Below are positions 407 to 9,251 of a DNA stretch of 31,491 nucleotides, one piece after another. Position 1 is the stretch's first letter; each line of letters opens with the position of its first letter. Below the pieces are notes generated by a model. It was not told the origin of the DNA. It saw nothing but the letters and a program-made list of their open reading frames with translations, and made no database searches. Position numbers and translations under genes: made by a program. Source of the stretch: Escherichia coli (GTDB lineage Bacteria > Pseudomonadota > Gammaproteobacteria > Enterobacterales > Enterobacteriaceae); assembly GCF_003334255.1 (NCBI RefSeq), contig NZ_QOWU01000059.1. One strand, given 5' to 3'.

Positions 407-3400
407 ATGGGAAAAGGTGGCGGTAAGGCACACACGCCTCGTGAGGCGAAGGATAATCTCAAATCCACGCAGATGATGAGCGTGATTGATGCGATTGGTG
501 AGGGACCGATAGAAGGTCCGGTGAAGGGACTGCAGAGTATCCTGGTGAACAAAACCCCGCTGACGGACACGGACGGTAATCCCGTGATACACGGTGTGAC
601 GGCGGTCTGGCGCGCCGGGGAGCAGGAGCAGACACCACCGGAAGGCTTTGAGTCCTCCGGTGCTGAAACCGGACTGGGCGTGGAAGTGACGAAGGCAAAA
701 CCGGTGACGCGCACCATTACGTCCGCGAACATTGACCGCCTGCGGGTTACCTTCGGGGTGCAGTCACTGGTGCAGACCACGTCAAAGGGTGACCGAAACC
801 CGACATCCGTCCGCCTGCTGATTCAGTTACAGCGTAACGGTAACTGGGTGACAGAAAAGGATGTCACCATTAACGGCAAGACCACCTCGCAGTTTCTGGC
901 GTCGGTGATTCTGGATAATCTGCCTCCCCGTCCTTTTAACATCCGGATGGTCCGGGAGACAGCGGACAGCACCACGGACCAGCTGCAGAATAAGACGCTG
1001 TGGTCGTCATACACCGAAATCATCGATGTGAAACAGTGCTACCCGAACACGGCCATTGTGGGGCTGCAGGTGGATGCGGAGCAGTTCGGCGGCCAGCAGA
1101 TGACGGTGAACTACCATATCCGCGGTCGCATCATCCAGGTGCCGTCAAACTATGACCCGGAAAAACGCACGTACAGTGGTATCTGGGACGGCAGTCTGAA
1201 ACCGGCATACAGCAACAACCCGGCCTGGTGCCTGTGGGACATGCTGACTCACCCGCGCTACGGCATGGGAAAACGTCTGGGGGCGGCGGATGTGGACAAG
1301 TGGGCGCTGTATGCCATCGGGCAGTACTGCGACCAGACGGTCCCGGATGGTTTCGGGGGGACCGAGCCGCGGATGACCTTTAATGCGTACCTGGCACAAC
1401 AGCGTAAGGCGTGGGACGTTCTCAGTGATTTCTGCTCTGCGATGCGCTGTATGCCGGTATGGAACGGTCAGACGCTGACGTTCGTTCAGGACCGCCCGTC
1501 GGATGTGGTGTGGCCGTACACCAGCAGCGATGTGGTGGTGGATGATAACGGCGTGGGGTTCCGCTACAGCTTCAGTGCCCTGAAGGACCGGCACACGGCG
1601 GTGGAGGTGAATTACACCGACCCGCAGAACGGCTGGCAGACCTCCACGGAACTGGTGGAAGACCCGGAAGCCATACTGCGCTACGGACGCAACCTGCTGA
1701 AGATGGACGCGTTCGGCTGTACCAGCCGCGGTCAGGCCCACCGTGCCGGGCTGTGGGTGATAAAGACCGAACTGCTGGAAACGCAGACGGTGGATTTCAC
1801 GCTCGGGTCACAGGGGCTGCGTCACACACCCGGTGACATCATTGAAATCTGTGATAACGACTATGCCGGGACCATGACCGGCGGACGTGTCCTGTCCATC
1901 GATGCCGCCAGCCGTACCCTGACGCTGGACCGGGAGGTGACACTGCCGGAGACCGGCACGGCCACTGTTAATCTGATTAACGGCAGCGGTAAGCCGGCGA
2001 GCGTGGCCATCACCGCACACCCCGCGCCTGACCGGATACAGGTCAGCACCCTGCCGGATGGTGTGGAGACATACGGTGTGTGGGGACTCTCCCTGCCGTC
2101 ACTGCGTCGTCGCCTGTTCCGCTGTGTCTCCATCCGGGAAAACACGGACGGCACCTTTGCCATCACGGCGGTGCAGCACGTACCTGAAAAAGAAGCCATC
2201 GTGGATAACGGGGCCCGCTTTGAGCCGCAGTCAGGCACCCTGAACAGCGTTATCCCACCGGCAGTGCAGCACCTGACGGTGGAGGTGAGTGCAGCTGACG
2301 GTCAGTATCTGGCACAGGCGAAATGGGACACGCCGCGGGTGGTGAAGGGTGTGCGCTTCAGTCTGCGTCTGACCAGCGGAAGCGGAGAAGACAGCCGTCT
2401 GGTGAGCACCGCCAGCACCGCAGACACGGAGCACCGTTTCAGCGGCCTGCCACTGGGGGAATACACCCTGACGGTCAGGGCGATTAACAGTTATGGCCAG
2501 CAGGGCGAACCGGCCACCACCACGTTCAGGATTAACGCACCTGCAAAACCCGCCACCATTGAGCTGACGCCGGGGTATTTTCAGATAACGGCGGTCCCGC
2601 GTCTTGCGGTGTATGACCCGACGGTACAGTTTGAATTCTGGTTCTCAGAAAAACGCATCACGAACACAGCACAGGTGGAAAAATCTGCCCGTTATCTGGG
2701 GACCGGCAGTCAGTGGACTGTCCATGGGAGCCGGATTAAGCCGGGGACGGATTTCTGGTTTTACGTGCGAAGCGTCAACCTGGTGGGAAAATCTGCTTTT
2801 GTGGAAGCCAGCGGGCAGCCCAGCAATGATGGTGAAGGGTATCTGGAAATTTTCCGGGGGCTGATAGATGAGACGCTTCTGGGCCAGGCACTGAAAGAGC
2901 GCATTGATGCTTCAGCGCTGCGTACGGAGGTCACGCAACTGGAAGAAGACATCCGTCAGCGGATGGACACGGATATCGCAGAAGTGACCCGGAAAATCGG
3001 GAAGGCGGAAAACAGCCTCACGCAGCTGGTTGCGAAAAAGAATGAGGACCAGACACTGGCCATCGCGCAGGTGAGCCAGAAAGTGGACCGGGTGAGCAGT
3101 GAAATCTCACAGACTGTCAGCCAGGGGCAGTCAGAAAACGCCCGACAGATAGCACAGGTCCGCCAGTACGTGGATAAAAAAGGGAGTGAAATTACCTCGA
3201 CCACGGATAAAAAGCTGGGTGACCAGGCCGTGACCATACAGCAAATCCAGCGGGTTCAGTCAGACACGCGCAATGAGCTGAATGCCATGTATATGCTGAA
3301 GGTGCAGAAAACAAAAAACGGTATTCCCTATGTGGCCGGGATTGGCGCGGGGATTGAGGATGTTGATGGTCAGACGCTGAGCAGTATTCTGCTGCAGGCG

Positions 3401-4099
3401 GACCGTATCGCGATGATTACCCCGGAGAACGGCAACACCACGCCGCTGTTTGTGGCGCAGGGGAATCAGCTGTTCATGAACGACGTGTTCCTGAAGCGAC
3501 TGTTTGCGGTGAGCATCACGTCATCCGGCAATCCTCCTACGTTTTCCCTGACGCCGGATGGCAGGCTGACAGCCCGCAATGCGGATATCAGTGGAGCCAT
3601 CACGGCGAATACCGGCACGCTCAATAATGTCACCATTAACGAGAACTGTGTCATCAGAGGGAAACTGTCTGCAAACCAGATTGAAGGCGATCTCGTTAAA
3701 ACAGTGGGTAAGGCTTTCCCCCGTGACTCCCGTGCACCGGAGCGTTGGCCATCAGGAACCATTACCGTCAGGGTTTATGACGATCAGCCGTTTAACCGGC
3801 AGATTGTTATTCCGGCGGTGGCTTTCAGCGGTGCCAGACATGAGCGGGAGAACAGCGATACTTATTCGTCATGCCGCCTGATAGTACGGAAAAACGGTGC
3901 TGAAATTTATAACCGTACCGCGCTGGATAATACGCTGATTTACAGTGGTGTTATTGATATGCCTGCTGGTCGCGGCCACATGACGCTGGAGTTTTCTGTA
4001 TCAGCATGGTGGGTAAATGGCTGGTATCCCACAGCAAGTATCAGCGATTTGCTGGTTGTTGTGATGAAGAAAGCCACTGCAGGCATCACGATTAGCTGA
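407..4099 (+). CDS. J: Phage host specificity protein J (tail tip / central tail fiber), 1230 aa
   Basis: N-terminus [22 protein letters not shown]… and long collinear stretches (…[22 protein letters not shown]…, …[24 protein letters not shown]…, …[18 protein letters not shown]…) match lambda gpJ as I recall it. AGGGGAAGG Shine-Dalgarno lies ahead of the ATG at 407. About 100 aa longer than lambda J, with extra coiled-coil-like sequence near aa 820-950. Confidence 0.93.
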
Positions 4100-4166: not shown

Positions 4167-4766
4167 ATGCGTAAAGTTTGTGCAGCCATTTTGTCCGCAG
4201 CCATCTGTCTGTCCGTATCCGGTGCGCCTGCATGGGCGTCTGAACATCAGTCCACACTGAGCGCGGGGTATCTTCATGCCCGTACGAACGCTCCCGGCAG
4301 CGATAATCTGAACGGGATTAACGTGAAATACCGTTATGAGTTTACGGACGCGCTGGGGCTGATTACGTCCTTCAGTTATGCCAATGCTGAGGATGAGCAA
4401 AAAACGCACTACAGCGATACCCGCTGGCATGAAGATTCCGTGCGTAACCGCTGGTTCAGCGTGATGGCGGGGCCGTCTGTACGCGTGAATGAATGGTTCA
4501 GCGCGTATGCGATGGTGGGTGTGGCTTACAGCCGTGTGTCGACTTTCTCCGGGGATTATCTCCGCGTAACTGACAACAAGGGGAAAACGCACGATGTGCT
4601 GACCGGAAGTGATGACGGTCGCCACAGCAACACGTCTCTGGCGTGGGGGGCTGGCGTGCAGTTTAACCCGACCGAATCCGTAACCATTGACCTTGCTTAT
4701 GAAGGTTCCGGTAGTGGCGACTGGCGAACGGATGCATTTATTGTTGGTATCGGATACCGTTTCTGA
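4167..4766 (+). CDS. lom: Lom/Ail-family outer membrane beta-barrel protein (lambda lom homolog), 199 aa
   Basis: Signal peptide MRKVCAAILSAAICLSVSGAPAWA, C-terminal aromatic residue (…GIGYRF), GAGAGG Shine-Dalgarno, and the J-lom-stf order typical of lambdoid phages. Sequence resembles lambda Lom. Confidence 0.88.
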   Translation: MRKVCAAILSAAICLSVSGAPAWASEHQSTLSAGYLHARTNAPGSDNLNGINVKYRYEFTDALGLITSFSYANAEDEQKTHYSDTRWHEDSVRNRWFSVMAGPSVRVNEWFSAYAMVGVAYSRVSTFSGDYLRVTDNKGKTHDVLTGSDDGRHSNTSLAWGAGVQFNPTESVTIDLAYEGSGSGDWRTDAFIVGIGYRF

Positions 4767-4870: not shown

Positions 4871-4903
4871 AAGCCCGTGGCGTCACTGCTGCGGGCTTTT
4901 TTT
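4871..4903 (+). terminator. Intrinsic terminator-like hairpin between lom and stf
   Basis: aAGCCCG…CGGGCTt stem (4871-4877 / 4892-4898) with further wobble pairs inward, followed by T7 at 4897-4903. Confidence 0.55.
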
Positions 4904-4917
4904 ATTGGTGGAAAAGT

Positions 4918-7900
4918 ATGACAGTAAAAATTTCTGGCGTGCTTAAAGATGGCACAGGAAAACCAGTACAGAACTGCACCATTGTGCTGAAGGCCAGACG
5001 AACCAGCAGCACGGTGGTGGTGAACACGGTGGCCTCTGAAAATCCGGATGAAGCCGGACGTTACAGCATGGATGTTGAGCATGGCCAGTACAGCGTCACC
5101 CTGCTGGTTGAAGGTTTTCCGCCTTCACATGCCGGGACCATTACCGTCTATGAAGGTTCCAGACCAGGTACGCTGAATGATTTTCTCGGTGCCATGACGG
5201 AGGATGATGTCCGACCGGAGGCACTGCGCCGCTTTGAGCAGATGGTGGAAGAGGTGTCACGTAACGCCTCCGCGGTTGCACAGAATACGGCAGCCGCGAA
5301 AAAATCAGCCAGCGATGCCAGTGCATCAGCCAGCGAGGCGGCAACTCATGCAACCGATGCTGCAGCCTCAGCACGTGCCGCCAGCACGTCAGCCGGACAG
5401 GCCGCGTCGTCGGCTCAGTCAGCGTCTTCCAGCGCAGGAACGGCATCGACAAAGGCCCGTGAAGCAGCAAAAAGTGCTGCTGCTGCAGAGTCATCAAAAA
5501 GCGCGGCAGCTACCAGCGCCAGTGCCGCGAAAACGTCAGAAACGAATGCCGCAGCATCACAAAAATCGGCAGCCACTTCTGCATCCACAGCGACCACGAA
5601 GGCGTCAGAAGCTGCCACCTCGGCACGGGGTGCGGCGGCCTCAAAAGAGGCAGCGAAATCTTCAGAAACGAATGCATCATCAAGTGCCAGTAGTGCAGCT
5701 TCCTCGGCAACGGCGGCAGGAAATTCCGCGAAGGCGGCAAAAACGTCCGAGACGAACGCTAAGTCTTCTGAAACAGCAGCGGGACAGAGCGCCTCAGCTG
5801 CGGCAGGTTCAAAAACAGCGGCTGCATTATCTGCCAGTGCCGCGTCAACAAGTGCCGGGCAGGCCTCAGCCAGTGCCACCGCCGCCGGAAAATCGGCAGA
5901 AAGCGCCGCATCATCCGCTTCAACAGCCACAACGAAAGCTGGCAAAGCCACTGAGCAAGCCACTGCAGCAGCGAGGTCTGCTTCTGCAGCAAAAACCTCT
6001 GAAACAAATGCAAAGACTTCAGCAGACAATGCTGCTTCCTCTAAGGCGGCAGCCGCATCGTCAGCCAGTTCAGCGGCGTCATCGGCATCATCTGCGTCTG
6101 CTTCAAAAGATGAGGCGACCAGACAAGCGTCAGCAGCGAAAGGTAGTGCCACGACAGCAACAACGAAAGCATCAGAGGCGGCAGGCAGTGCGACGGCTGC
6201 ATCTCAGAGCAAAGTTGCTGCTGAATCCGCGGCAACGCGCGCCGAGACAGCAGCAAAACGGGCAGAGGATATTGCATCCGCCGTGGCGCTGGAGGATGCG
6301 AGCACGACGAAAAAGGGGATAGTACAGCTCAGCAGTGCAACAAACAGCACCAGTGAAAAGCTGGCGGCAACGCCAAAGGCAGTTAAAACTGTTAAAGATA
6401 GTTCAGTTCAAAAAACTGGCGACACAATGGGAGGGCAGTTAAAAATCAGCACGATAAATGCTCTTCGAATATTCAACCAAGCCTTTGGCCTTATTTTTAG
6501 GCGTTCCGAAGATCATCTTCATCTTATTCCGACTAATGAAGGGGAGGGGGAAAATGGAGACATCGGTTCATTAAGACCATTCTCTATAAACTTAAGATCA
6601 GGGTTGGTGTCCATCGGTAATGGACTAAAAGTTGGTGGTAGTGTTACTGGTAATTTGACCGGAAACGCAGATACTGCGACCAAGATCAAGACAGCACGTA
6701 AGATTGGGGGCGTGGCATTTGATGGATCGGCAGATATCAACTTGCCTGGAGTCAACGCTACCGGTAATCAAAACACTACAGGTAATGCTGCGACCGCCAC
6801 GAAACTTCAGGCAGCCAGAACGATTAACGGTGTGTCATTTGATGGTAGTGCAAATATCACATTGACCCCTTCAAATATTGGGGCATTGGCATTAACTGGA
6901 GGGACTCTTTCAGGTGGTTTAACTGCTGCTGGTGAGGTTATTTCAAGGTCAGCAAATGGTCTGCGTATTGCCTATGGCAACTATGGATTCTTTATCCGAA
7001 ATGATGGATCAAACACATATTTTATGTTGACAGATTCGGGTAACAGTCTTGGTACGCACAATAGCTTAAGGCCGTTTATAATTAGTAACCATACTGGCAA
7101 TGTTACAATTGCAACTAAATTAAACGCGAGTGGTGGTATCACTGGATCTTTATCGGGTAATGCAAGCACAGCAACCAAATTGCAAACTGCAAGGACAATT
7201 AACGGCGTAAAATTTGACGGCTCGGCAAATATTGAAGCGTTTCCGCCAGGTGTTCCGCTGCCGTGGCCATCAGATACACCACCTGCAGGTTATGCGATCA
7301 TGCAGGGGCAGACGTTTGATAAGGCAGCATATCCGAAACTGGCTATTGCCTATCCTTCAGGTGTTATTCCAGATATGCGCGGCTGGACAATCAAGGGCAA
7401 ACCCGCCAGTGGCCGGGCCGTATTGTCTCAGGAACAGGACGGCATAAAATCGCACACCCACAGCGCCAGCGCATCCAGTACGGATTTGGGGACGAAAACC
7501 ACATCGTCGTTTGATTACGGCACTAAATCCACGAATAACACCGGGGCGCATACGCACAGTCTGAGTGGCTCTACGGGGTCTGCCGGTGTTCATACTCATG
7601 GTAATGGTATTCGTTGGCCAGGAGGCGGCGGTTCTGCGTTAGCATTTTATGATGGCGGTGGGTTCACTTATGTCCAGAATTCACAGTATCAAGTAAGCCC
7701 GGAGACTTCTTCCTATAGATCGTATTATCAACGTATTCAGACACAGTCAGCAGGTGCTCATACCCACTCGCTGTCTGGTACTGCAGCAAGTTCTGGCGCA
7801 CATGCACATACTGTAGGTATTGGTGCGCATACGCACTCCGTTGCGATTGGTTCACATGGACACACCATCACCGTTAACGCTGCGGGTAACGCGGAAAACA

Positions 7901-7944
7901 CCGTCAAAAACATCGCATTTAACTATATTGTGAGGCTTGCATAA
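4918..7944 (+). CDS. stf: Side tail fiber protein (Stf-like), 1008 aa, mosaic
   Basis: N-terminus [22 protein letters not shown]… and C-terminus …[31 protein letters not shown] match lambda Stf as recalled. Contains an Ala/Ser/Thr-rich low-complexity segment, three copies of a G-N-x-x-TATK(L/I)-x-(T/A)AR-x-I-(N/G)GV-x-FDGSA(N/D)I phage tail-fiber repeat (about nt 6650-7240), and His-rich HTHS/HAHT repeats near the C-terminus. Confidence 0.9.
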
Positions 7945-8528
7945 TGGCATTCAGAATGAGTGAACAAGCACGGACCATAAAAATTTATAATCTGCTGGCC
8001 GGAACTAATGAATTTATTGGTGAAGGTGACGCATATATTCCGCCTCATACAGGTCTGCCAGCAAACAGTACCGATATTGCACCACCAGATATTCCTGCTG
8101 GCTTTGTGGCTGTTTTCAACAGTGATGAGGCATCGTGGCATCTCGTTGAAGACCATCGGGGGAAAACGGTTTATGACGTAGCGTCAGGGGACGAGTTATT
8201 TATTTCTGAACTCGGTCCGTTACCGGAAAATGTTACCTGGTTATCGCCGGAAGGGGAGTTTCAGAAGTGGAACGGCACAGCCTGGGTGAAGGATACGGAA
8301 GCAGAAAAACTGTTCCGGATCCGGGAGGCGGAAGAAACAAAAAACAACCTGATGCAGGTAGCCAGTGAGCATATTGCGCCGCTTCAGGATGCTGCAGATC
8401 TGGAAATTGCAACGGAGAAAGAAACCTCATTGCTGGAAGCCTGGAAAAAGTATCGGGTGTTGCTGAACCGTGTTGATACATCAACTGCACCTGATATTGA
8501 GTGGCCTACGAACCCTGTCAGGGAGTAA
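7944..8528 (+). CDS. tfa: Tail fiber assembly protein (Tfa), 194 aa
   Basis: [34 protein letters not shown]… is near-identical to lambda Tfa as recalled. The start overlaps the stf stop in a TAATG arrangement (translational coupling). Confidence 0.92.
8367..8528 (+). repeat. Direct repeat copy A (3' end of tfa), ~160 bp
   Basis: Nucleotide alignment by eye: gagcatattgcgccgcttcaggatgctgcagatctggaaattgcaacgg… versus gagtatattgcgccactgcaggatgctgtagatctggaaatcgcaacgg… at 9416; roughly 85-90% identity, same orientation. Confidence 0.75.
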
Positions 8529-8542
8529 TCATTGGGATTATG

Positions 8543-8590
8543 CCGCAGCACGTCTTAAGCAAGAACGTGCTGCGGTTGGATGCTATTTTT
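8543..8590. terminator. Hairpin plus T-run between convergent tfa (+) and methyltransferase (-); likely bidirectional terminator
   Basis: Perfect 11-bp stem CCGCAGCACGT (8543-8553) / ACGTGCTGCGG (8565-8575), 11-nt loop, then …tgctatttttt to 8590. Confidence 0.5.
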
Positions 8591-9251
8591 TCCCTGAAGC
8601 GGAAAACATTACTACAGTACCTTGAACCTTGGTTTTAACATTCTCGAAATGCTCTGAGAGTATATGTGTTAAGCCTTCTTCGGAATCTTTTGTGTTTGAA
8701 AAGATGCCTTTCTGATTGTAAATGCGCATCAGTTTTTGACCGAAGCTATTGTGCACAACTCCATCGCCAAGAATTGTGGCTCCGTATAGAGTTCCATCGT
8801 CAGTTAAGGCCTGCGCCGCATTGCGTATTACACAGCTTTTTGTAGATATATTTCCAGGCAGGCAGTGAAGAAGGTAAAACATGGAAATGGAATCAAATTG
8901 ACCATGTAACGCCGCGGGATAAGGTTCAAAAACATCATGGCTAATTTTATGTTTAATTTTTGATTCCCCAGCCCTTGTAGATGCCGCGTTCAGGCTAGCT
9001 TCGTTCAAATCCATTAAAGATATCAGACTACTCTCAGGTACGTGAGTAAGGTAAAACCCAGTTCCAACACCAATATCCAGATGGTTGTTACCTACATGTT
9101 CCAGAAAGTGTGGAAGAAGGTGTTCCTTTGTAGGACATCCCCATGCAAGCCGATTTGATACTCCCAAAACCCACCAGTCATAAAGCTTTAGGGTAAGTGG
9201 TGTGTAAATTTTAGCCCCATCATCTGTGTTTTTTTTCATTGATTTCACCAT
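8583..9251 (-). CDS. Class I SAM-dependent methyltransferase (prophage cargo gene), 222 aa from the first ATG
   Basis: Glycine-rich SAM-binding motif I (…HLDIGVGTGFYL…) followed by an acidic residue at the end of the next beta-strand (…ISLMDLNE…). Opposite strand to the tail genes and visibly more AT-rich than its flanks. The start is ambiguous: ATG at 9249-9251 (MVKS…) or ATG at 9236-9238 (MKKNT…, preceded by GGTGA at SD spacing). Confidence 0.75.
   Translation of the reverse strand: MVKSMKKNTDDGAKIYTPLTLKLYDWWVLGVSNRLAWGCPTKEHLLPHFLEHVGNNHLDIGVGTGFYLTHVPESSLISLMDLNEASLNAASTRAGESKIKHKISHDVFEPYPAALHGQFDSISMFYLLHCLPGNISTKSCVIRNAAQALTDDGTLYGATILGDGVVHNSFGQKLMRIYNQKGIFSNTKDSEEGLTHILSEHFENVKTKVQGTVVMFSASGKK

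Follow-up and report, generated by a model that had tools for sequence, protein, structure and literature searches.

Within a 31,491-nt window of an Escherichia coli contig (NZ_QOWU01000059.1, assembly GCF_003334255.1), the side tail fibre gene stf contains a stretch (positions 5250-6300) that had been marked from the letters alone as an Ala/Ser/Thr-rich, low-complexity shaft. Is this stretch a loose linker or an ordered structural element, and do the long open reading frames that overlap it encode anything? We found that the Ala/Ser/Thr stretch is a phased heptad array, more than loose low complexity. The product of this segment is very probably the proximal shaft of a lambda-type Stf, a three-stranded α-helical coiled coil with an Ala core. 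The evidence comprises composition, register, predicted helicity, homology to lambda Stf, length classes among homologues and repeat-flanked deletion ends.

Genomic context of the stf gene

The genes around the segment follow the order J-lom-stf-tfa of a lambdoid tail module (Table 1). The tfa call is based on position and on a 194-aa length equal to that of lambda orf-194, and phage matches of this gene are labelled tail fiber assembly. Pfam searches of Stf detected phage_tail_N (PF08400) at aa 1-134 (E = 5.6e-70), Gp34_trimer at aa 620-722 and Collar at aa 778-825, and no family at aa 135-467; across 5250-6300, Stf is the one ORF with domain support. The StfN collar/phage_tail_N domain at the N-terminus is that of a lambda-type side fibre, and the collar is the anchor of the fibre on the tail (PMC12617516). 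At the other end of the protein, aa 743-1008 matched the T4 gp37 tip (PDB 2xgf_A, E = 1.2e-79). Right after the conserved junction that follows the shaft (alignment A1, columns >401), the homologues split into several unrelated distal modules.

Table 1. Coordinates of the genes, domains, repeats and overlapping reading frames discussed here
Feature	Position	Strand	Remarks
J homologue	407-4099	+	NF049904 lambda_TipJ, 2313 bits (cut-off 1950)
lom, Lom/OmpX-like ORF	4167-4766		scores under curated cut-offs
stf, side tail fibre gene	4918..7944	+	1008 aa; from ORF list
StfN collar domain, aa 1-94	4918..5199	+	PDB 9e7m/9mgh chains, E 3.6e-47
Antisense ORF, 118 aa	5141-5497	-	
Alternative-frame ORF (+1 relative to stf), 372 aa	5204..6322	+	Pro/Gln/Arg-rich; by-product
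Heptad array, aa 100-463	5215..6306	+	~52 consecutive heptads (364 residues), single register; true extent of the feature
Antisense ORF, 245 aa	5415..6152	-	Ala/Asp/Phe/Val-rich; counterpart of lambda orf206b (same antisense frame)
KTSETNA heptad copy 1, aa 205-211	5530..5550	+	repeat family D2
KSSETNA heptad copy 2, aa 247-253	5656..5676	+	left boundary of the 84-nt piece with which the 336-nt difference begins
KTSETNA + KSSETAA, adjoining heptads, aa 275-288	5740..5781	+	
Antisense ORF, 84 aa	5759-6013	-	
KTSETNA heptad copy 5, aa 359-365	5992..6012	+	336 nt (112 aa, 16 heptads) from copy 2
Conserved junction, aa 462-490	6301..6387	+	shaft terminus; alignment A1 columns invariant or nearly so
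Receptor-binding tip with HxH motifs	7144..7941	+	T4 gp37 needle homologue
tfa, tail fibre assembly gene	7944..8528	+	194 aa; partner of the Stf tip

A single-register heptad array

Positions 5250-6300 correspond to aa 111-461 of Stf, and the composition of these 351 residues (A136, S82, T38, K25, E20) bears out the original prediction: Ala, Ser, Thr, Lys and Glu account for 85.8%, and Ala, Ser and Thr for 72.9%. Elsewhere in Stf, the A/S/T content is 13-50% per 30-aa block. Large hydrophobic residues in aa 111-461 are limited to 4 V, 2 L and 1 I.

We compared the protein with itself at successive offsets, and found that the identity was 0.41 at multiples of 7 and 0.20 otherwise. The top 17 offsets up to 119 were precisely the 17 multiples of 7, so that the internal periodicity on which the original prediction had staked itself is present. 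All repeated 7-mers of the shaft lie at offsets of 0 mod 7, and the Fourier power of Ala was 41 at a period of 3.5 and 18.6 at 7.0 (all others ≤6). The heptad consensus is x-[TS]-S-A-[ST]-x-A, with Ser in column 3 in 37 of the 52 heptads, Ala in column 4 in 36 and Ala in column 7 in 47; column 4 is Lys or Glu in 11 further heptads. Together, core columns 4 and 7 contain 83 Ala at 104 positions, compared with 45±2.4 in shuffled sequences (maximum 58 in 20000). The best register was identical in all 28-aa windows starting from aa 92 to aa 421 and tied-best until aa 442, and a single register thus spans aa 92 to about aa 448. The array contains one Pro, which is its first residue, no Cys, and 11 Gly, none at either core column. 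Heptad periodicity with apolar a and d positions is thus sustained over many repeats, as in coiled coils. We also sought a higher-order repeat in the shaft (for example, a 154-aa or 112-aa duplication), and no offset exceeded the general heptad signal; the best 42-aa windows were merely 25-26/42 identical, at several different offsets.

The recurring units had been described as AKTSETNA(K/A)SS. KTSETNA does recur in phase, but the repeating unit is a 7-residue heptad and not an 11-residue one. AAKTSETNA occurs three times (aa 203, 273 and 357), AAKSSETNA at aa 245 and KSSETAA at aa 282; these copies are dispersed, without a tandem layout, at spacings of 42, 28, 7 and 77 aa, each a multiple of 7. 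KTSETNA is therefore a form of the heptad that recurs, with Glu in column 4, the first of the two core columns.

At the DNA level, self-identity was 0.437 at multiples of 21 nt versus 0.367 at other multiples of 3. The direct-repeat DNA families are 62-82% alike and dispersed, and do not form head-to-tail tandem copies at about 70% identity or more. A VNTR-like DNA array was considered and rejected, as Tandem Repeats Finder applied to 4900-8000 gave two trivial matches (26 nt and 29 nt). Because this program detects no DNA array, the repeat is degenerate and is seen mainly in the protein.

Length variation among homologues

The original prediction held that repeat number may vary between prophages. 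When the N-terminal 134 aa were used in a protein search, nearly all matches were partial fragments of 116-235 aa, which are useless for lengths, and shaft lengths were accordingly determined in a set of homologues from 80 viral contigs. Between the two conserved flanking anchors, these homologues carry 20, 36, 37, 51 or 52 heptads, so the repeat number does vary. The corresponding anchor-to-anchor distances were 134, 246, 253, 351 and 358 aa, all 1 mod 7 (46 out of 50 loci). Two rarer classes, of 138 and 350 aa, were out of phase (L048, +4 residues; L012 and L013, −1 residue), and since these break the phase, the register need not run on without interruption.

MAFFT and pairwise alignments showed single gaps of 7, 105 and 224 aa. 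The 21-nt gap of L009 sits between two copies of ATCAGCCAGCGA, and the 672-nt gap of L043 sits between the D4 copies CGTCAGCC. A 336-nt difference occurs in L017, L024, L030 and L034; in L017 its first 84-nt piece runs from KSSETNA at 5656 to KTSETNA at 5740, and the copies at 5656 and 5992 are themselves 336 nt apart, which is the full size of the difference. In the divergent homologues L017, L065 and L046, DNA gap placement is ambiguous (non-triplet pieces summing to multiples of 21, or 315 nt in L065), and protein alignments and anchor distances were used for them instead. Where alignments are unambiguous, deletions end on in-phase direct DNA repeats, KTSETNA copies included.

These observations suggest that recombination or slippage between in-phase copies of the degenerate 21-nt repeat may add or remove whole heptads, with the KTSETNA copies and the ATCAGCCAGCGA and CGTCAGCC repeats as possible endpoints. 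Since such a repeat would exchange whole heptads, most length variants would keep the coiled-coil register. The in-phase indels may stem from the phased repeats alone, without selection on register.

Predicted structure and alternative readings

An AF2 monomer prediction (34-sequence alignment) placed helices at aa 95-280 and 285-474, with pLDDT mostly 80-94 over the array, and this predicted helix, uninterrupted by helix breakers within the array, is what a coiled coil would require. In the best model the helix folds back at aa 281-284; the mean pLDDT of the other four models was 56-64. The hairpin-like tertiary arrangement of the monomer is an artefact. PDB searches with the whole Stf and with the shaft alone turned up no experimental atomic structure for this part in any homologue, and the shaft gave only weak matches (T7 gp17, E = 0.037; 9cod, E = 0.017).

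We considered whether the segment could instead be an intrinsically disordered, flexible linker, in which the A/S/T richness matters and the register has no role. A composition of 73% A/S/T with nearly no large hydrophobic residues would suit such a linker, as would the position of aa 135-467 outside every Pfam family and the absence of the shaft from the Ur-lambda cryo-EM models, of which aa 1-94 alone were deposited. However, a disordered segment would not be expected to hold a strict 3.5/7 periodicity in one register through ~50 heptads, to confine its single Pro to the array start and keep Gly out of its core columns, to be predicted as a confident helix, or to vary in length mostly by whole-heptad steps. 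Moreover, the fibres seen by cryo-ET in Ur-lambda are extended and were modelled by the authors as a coiled coil (PMC12617516), and we regard the disordered linker as highly improbable. The 'flexible or coiled' shaft originally proposed is thus coiled on the evidence of heptads, AF2 helix and lambda Stf homology, and the flexible alternative is less supported. The fold-back in the best AF2 monomer, two helices with a turn, could also be taken at face value, as an antiparallel Alacoil-like hairpin that would halve the length of the shaft and give the trimer six strands. Ala at a and d is typical of antiparallel Alacoil pairs, and Gernert et al. reportedly described it in 1995 as the signature of such tightly packed pairs. 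Against this, the turn falls in an ordinary heptad (AKSS) that has no Gly or Pro and is not specially conserved, one-sided deletions of 105-224 aa in homologues would unpair the arms, and the remaining four models scored far lower. A similarly folded AF3 model of full-length gpStf was judged inconsistent with cryo-ET by the Ur-lambda authors (PMC12617516). We thus consider the hairpin highly improbable, and favour the parallel three-stranded coiled coil.

The composition of the segment might also be shaped by dual coding, if one of the overlapping ORFs were a real second gene. The candidate is the antisense ORF at 5415-6152: 29 of 31 homologues keep its frame open, at identities as low as 84%, its product matches phrog_560 ('unknown function', E = 3e-115), and orf206b is annotated in the lambda reference record. 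However, a stop can arise in this antisense frame only where stf has a Tyr, His or Gln codon, and such codons are very scarce (10 opportunities); given also the shared wobble position, the frame is open by default. When the stf codons were reshuffled synonymously, the mean antisense run was 217 codons, and the observed 262 was reached in 26% of trials. Changes that are synonymous in the antisense frame and nonsynonymous in stf were accepted at 15.7% of those possible, similar to changes nonsynonymous in both frames (14.4%), whereas changes synonymous in stf and nonsynonymous in the antisense frame were accepted at 24.6%. Among stf-synonymous transversions, there was no excess of antisense-synonymous ones (66% versus 62% possible, P = 0.34). 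These comparisons, whose power is limited, the wobble position being shared with stf, thus gave no sign of purifying selection on the antisense ORF in its own frame. The protein predicted from this ORF is of low complexity too (A/D/F/V/E), a mirror image. In the stf frame, third codon positions vary twice as often as first or second ones (240 versus 118 and 124). On the plus strand, the 5204..6322 frame is interrupted by 1-3 stops in 19 of the 31 homologues aligned without gaps, its ORF had no match in a PHROG search, and reshuffling gave a mean open run of 306 codons, with the observed 372 reached in 20%. A second gene is therefore extremely improbable, and the amino-acid composition accounts for the long ORFs in other frames as by-products, in keeping with their description as artefactual in the original prediction. 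That prediction had attributed them to biased GCN/AGC codons; long frames are indeed open on both strands, but Ser in the shaft is encoded mostly by TCN (TCA 29, TCT 13, TCC 10 and TCG 9), with AGC used 10 times.

Comparison with known fibres

Lambda Stf belongs to the same family and has the same J-lom-stf-tfa order, and its StfN aligned over aa 1-94 (E = 3.6e-47). When lambda orf-401 is written in rows of seven, the array has the same start residue, register and end motif, and many heptads, KTSETNA, ESSK.AA and TKASEA among them, are common to both proteins; by sequence, the Ala/Ser heptad shaft is thus colinear, heptad by heptad, with that of lambda Stf, as expected of a lambda-type side fibre. 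The lambda array has 37 heptads, and that of the present Stf exceeds it by 15 (105 aa, about 16 nm). Lambda Stf has a total length of 774 aa, compared with 1008 aa here. Past aa 490 the distal arrangement is unlike that of lambda, although both proteins end in a gp37-like tip. In Ur-lambda, a 2025 study combining AF3 segments with cryo-ET assigned StfN to residues 1-91, a linker to 92-101 and a proximal coiled coil to 102-393; the side fibre consists of three protein copies, with four trimers per virion on the tail tip (PMC12617516).

In the K-12 Rac prophage, stfR matched bases 1-1050 of the 1051-nt segment in a single piece at 89.4% identity; because this is one full-length piece, the stfR shaft is essentially equal in length. 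Other E. coli prophage proteins with the tail fibre N-terminal domain, stfR among them, differ by ~10% in sequence, and their distal modules vary by prophage. Of 5426 complete E. coli genomes, 4078 carry the segment, with as many as 7 places in one genome and 6534 places in all. In the trimeric T7 fibre protein gp17, a coiled-coil rod likewise comes after an N-terminal domain that binds the tail, and gp17 is the only tail-fibre chain among PDB entries that the shaft alone matched, marginally and over residues 172-265. This region has Ala/Ser/Asn-rich heptads (for example, SAGNSASAAHQSEVNAENSATASANSA), but the gp17 rod falls far short of the Stf shaft in length and in places contains aromatic and large hydrophobic residues. 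Small Ala side chains at heptad a and d positions are a feature of alanine-zipper trimeric coiled coils (Lpp-56 core) and of the Alacoil, in which structures of known fold contain Ala segments of few heptads inside conventional cores. In the present Stf, by contrast, Ala occupies ~80% of core positions across ~52 heptads, as read from sequence. A literature search on alanine-rich heptad tail fibres and trimeric alanine zippers found nothing, and a Nature 2024 paper on chimeric STFs is silent on shaft structure.

A model of the shaft and its implications

In the model that we favour, three Stf chains would be joined N-terminally by the StfN collar and C-terminally by the β-structured distal domains, and between these ends they would form a parallel three-stranded α-helical coiled coil, its trimeric state and orientation being partly taken from the literature. 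The core would be nearly all Ala at a and d with Ser flanking it, while Ser, Thr, Lys and Glu would face outward. With 0.148 nm per residue, 364 residues would give a thin rod of ~54 nm, which may act as a spacer that keeps the gp37-like tip off the tail so that the tip meets the receptor first. A core made entirely of Ala should contribute little stability, so that stretches of the rod could pack loosely or flex. A bolder proposal, which we offer tentatively and consider rather unlikely, treats the shaft as an extreme coiled coil: ~50 heptads with near-pure Ala at a and d and Ser at g would make a thin, weakly stabilised, elastic trimeric rod, in which regularly spaced Glu and Lys at a (KTSETNA, xxSKxxA) might act as soft spots or ion-binding layers, and whose length might be tuned to O-antigen or capsule depth in ~1 nm heptad steps by in-phase recombination.

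The feature is an ordinary one that is widespread in E. coli and known from earlier work on phage lambda. Because this 'low-complexity' stretch is in fact a structural element with exact phasing, designers of chimeric Stf proteins for phage-derived delivery particles should change its length by multiples of seven residues. Heptad coding also explains spurious overlapping ORFs in pipelines and databases, such as lambda orf206b and phrog_560, and the presence of up to 7 copies per E. coli genome may be the reason that contigs of draft assemblies are often broken within stf. Finally, the discrete shafts of 20 to 52 heptads, ~21 to 54 nm, constitute a natural series in which the reach of the fibre can be related to adsorption.

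Heptad register and predicted structure of the Stf shaft

The region 5250–6300 encodes residues 111–461 of Stf, the 1008-residue side tail fibre, and had been described from the sequence as biased toward Ala, Ser, Thr, Lys and Glu; these residues indeed account for 86% of it (A136, S82, T38, K25 and E20 of 351). The KTSETNA-type words also recur as described, with three copies of AAKTSETNA and the close variants AAKSSETNA and KSSETAA. However, KTSETNA is not the repeat unit but a single heptad, K-T-S-E-T-N-A, recurring in phase within an array of 52 heptads. When the array was laid out in rows of seven starting at residue 100, Ser occupied column 3 in 37 of 52 rows, Ala occupied column 4 in 36 rows, and column 7 contained Ala in 47 rows and Val in 3. 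At the core columns (4 and 7) together, Ala was found at 83 of 104 positions, compared with a mean of 45±2.4 and a maximum of 58 in 20000 shuffles, for each of which the best of seven registers was scored.

The predicted internal periodicity was evident upon self-comparison (identity of 0.41 at each multiple of 7 vs 0.20 at other offsets), and the offsets between repeated 7-mers were all 0 mod 7. Fourier analysis of the Ala positions yielded no peaks other than those at 3.5 (power 41) and 7.0 (18.6), and neither a period-2 (β) nor a period-11 signal. One register was uniquely best in all 28-residue windows beginning at residues 92 to 421, and tied for best in those starting up to residue 442; neither stutters nor stammers were found over approximately 50 heptads. 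The array contains one Pro (its first residue), no Cys, one aromatic residue and 11 Gly, none of them on core columns. No higher-order repeat stood out in the shaft, and its DNA was too degenerate for the array to be detected by Tandem Repeats Finder.

An AlphaFold2 monomer prediction based on a 34-sequence alignment comprised continuous helices at residues 95–280 and 285–474 (pLDDT mostly 80–94 over the array), folding back at residues 281–284. This fold-back is best read as a product of monomer prediction applied to an oligomeric rod. The same problem was encountered with AlphaFold3 on full-length gpStf of Ur-lambda, where, according to the authors, it contradicted the tomograms (PMC12617516). 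In rows of seven, lambda orf-401 showed the same array from residue 100, with many identical heptads and the same ending, but with 37 heptads rather than 52. Judged by this sequence match, the shaft is homologous to the lambda domain that has been interpreted as forming a trimeric coiled coil. By analogy, a parallel trimer would be expected from the work on lambda and from the chain topology: all three chains begin in a single collar and finish in a single β-structured distal part. With 0.148 nm for each residue, the rod would measure ~54 nm, compared with ~38 nm in lambda.

Length variation among homologues

We collected 80 viral contigs encoding the N-domain, representing 72 distinct Stf proteins of 258–1680 residues. 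In almost every homologue, a register-tracking HMM placed the start of the shaft at one and the same residue, with the end ranging from residue 142 to 457. As a gauge of shaft length, we used the distance from MVEEV to G[IV][IV]xLS, two conserved anchors. The distances of 134, 246, 253, 351 and 358 residues bear out the suggestion that repeat number may vary among prophages; all are 1 mod 7 (20, 36, 37, 51 and 52 heptads; 46 of 50 loci), the off-phase exceptions being 138 (+4) and 350 (−1). Homologue shafts keep a single register except at locus L048, where a stutter-like junction at residues 141/142 moves it by +4, and at L012/L013, where a 1-residue deletion at ~residue 180 breaks the phase. 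The shaft thus tolerates at least single discontinuities.

Alignments of close relatives contained single gaps of 7, 105, 112 and 224 residues, and gap ends coincided with direct repeats wherever the DNA alignment was unambiguous. For example, a 21-nt gap in one homologue (L009) ends on ATCAGCCAGCGA direct repeats, and a 672-nt gap in another (L043) ends on the CGTCAGCC pair (repeat family D4, spacing 672 nt). In a third (L017), the total difference of 336 nt equals the spacing between copies at 5656 and 5992, and its first piece (84 nt) is bounded by the KSSETNA copy at 5656 and the KTSETNA copy at 5740. Since every one of these direct repeats lies in phase, recombination or slippage between them would alter shaft length by whole heptads. 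In-phase repeats may by themselves account for the whole-heptad steps, or selection for register continuity may contribute as well.

Overlapping reading frames

Long ORFs were confirmed on both strands of the shaft. The antisense ORF is open in 29 of 31 ungapped homologues, is the same-frame counterpart of orf206b, an ORF annotated in lambda (NC_001416 20147–20767; L081 648–1268, −), and matches a protein family; the +1 ORF is broken in 19 of the 31. However, the antisense ORF and stf have a common wobble position, and an antisense stop can arise only where stf encodes Tyr, His or Gln. When the same protein was recoded with redrawn synonymous codons, open runs matched or exceeded the observed length in 26% (antisense) and 20% (+1) of trials. 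Among the 31 homologues, variable sites fell at third stf codon positions in 240 cases, compared with 118 at first and 124 at second. Of possible substitutions, 24.6% were accepted when synonymous in stf only, 15.7% when synonymous in the antisense frame only, and 14.4% when nonsynonymous in both, the second being no higher than the third. Codon redrawing and substitution acceptance agree with the original prediction that these ORFs are artefactual: they are by-products of shaft composition, and phrog_560 appears to be a family built from such by-products of Ala/Ser heptad coding.

Gene neighbourhood and distal modules

The window holds the terminal part of a lambdoid tail module.

Features of the tail module, Stf and overlapping ORFs
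Feature	Position (nt)	Strand	Stf residues	Match
J homologue	407–4099	+		NF049904 lambda_TipJ, 2313 bits
Lom/OmpX-like gene	4167–4766			
stf (1008 aa)	4918–7944	+		
tfa (194 aa)	7944–8528			
Collar domain			1–94	Ur-lambda 9e7m/9mgh, E 3.6e-47
phage_tail_N			1–134	Pfam
Junction motif	6301–6387	+	462–490	
Gp34_trimer			620–722	Pfam
Needle tip	7144–7941	+	743–1008	T4 gp37 2xgf, E 1.2e-79
Collar			778–825	Pfam
+1 ORF	5204–6322			
Antisense ORF	5415–6152	−		phrog_560 ('unknown function'), E 3e-115
222-aa ORF	8583–9251	−		

Residues 135–467 of Stf matched no Pfam family, and in the search against solved structures no chain covered the Ala-rich part; the N-terminus resembled the Ur-lambda side-fibre collar, and the tip was closely homologous to that of gp37. 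The tip carries seven HxH motifs (e.g. SHTHS, GAHTHS and GVHTHG), which we interpret as gp37's iron-binding His pairs. These features suggest a receptor of the OmpC/LPS type, like those of lambda and T4. In the 1230-residue J homologue, the best lambda_TipJ stretch covers only residues 1–898 and residues ~830–960 resemble a charged coiled-coil insertion; lambda J and this homologue probably have different receptor-binding C-termini. The 222-residue ORF directly after tfa carries a methyltransferase-like glycine motif (LDIGVGTG), had no NCBIfam match at E ≤ 1e-5, and may be either cargo of the prophage or the first of the host genes flanking it.

Homologues change to unrelated distal modules directly after ...ATPKAVK, a mosaic pattern familiar from tail-fibre genes. 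The junction motif is near-invariant, with divergence right after it, and on sequence looks like the standard recombination joint of proximal and distal fibre parts. In three homologues (L041, L048 and L055), it (QKGI[IV]...) is repeated ~40 residues downstream.

Frequency and novelty

The 1051-nt segment occurs in 4078 of 5426 complete E. coli genomes, at up to seven places per genome, and is routinely annotated as a prophage tail fibre protein; stfR of K-12-derived strains matches it along its full length (89.4% identity). Nearly all of the best database homologues found for the N-terminus of Stf (P0001–P0120) are 'partial' (116–235 residues), which suggests that draft assemblies often break within the shaft, probably because several prophages of one genome share the segment. 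Phage fibres are known to use coiled-coil rods of differing length as a building block (PMC12143355). The Ala-rich shaft is confirmed, has a good explanation and was known before; the modest additions made here are the description of a strict single-register Ala/Ser heptad array and of length classes that are mostly whole-heptad, with repeat-flanked deletion ends.
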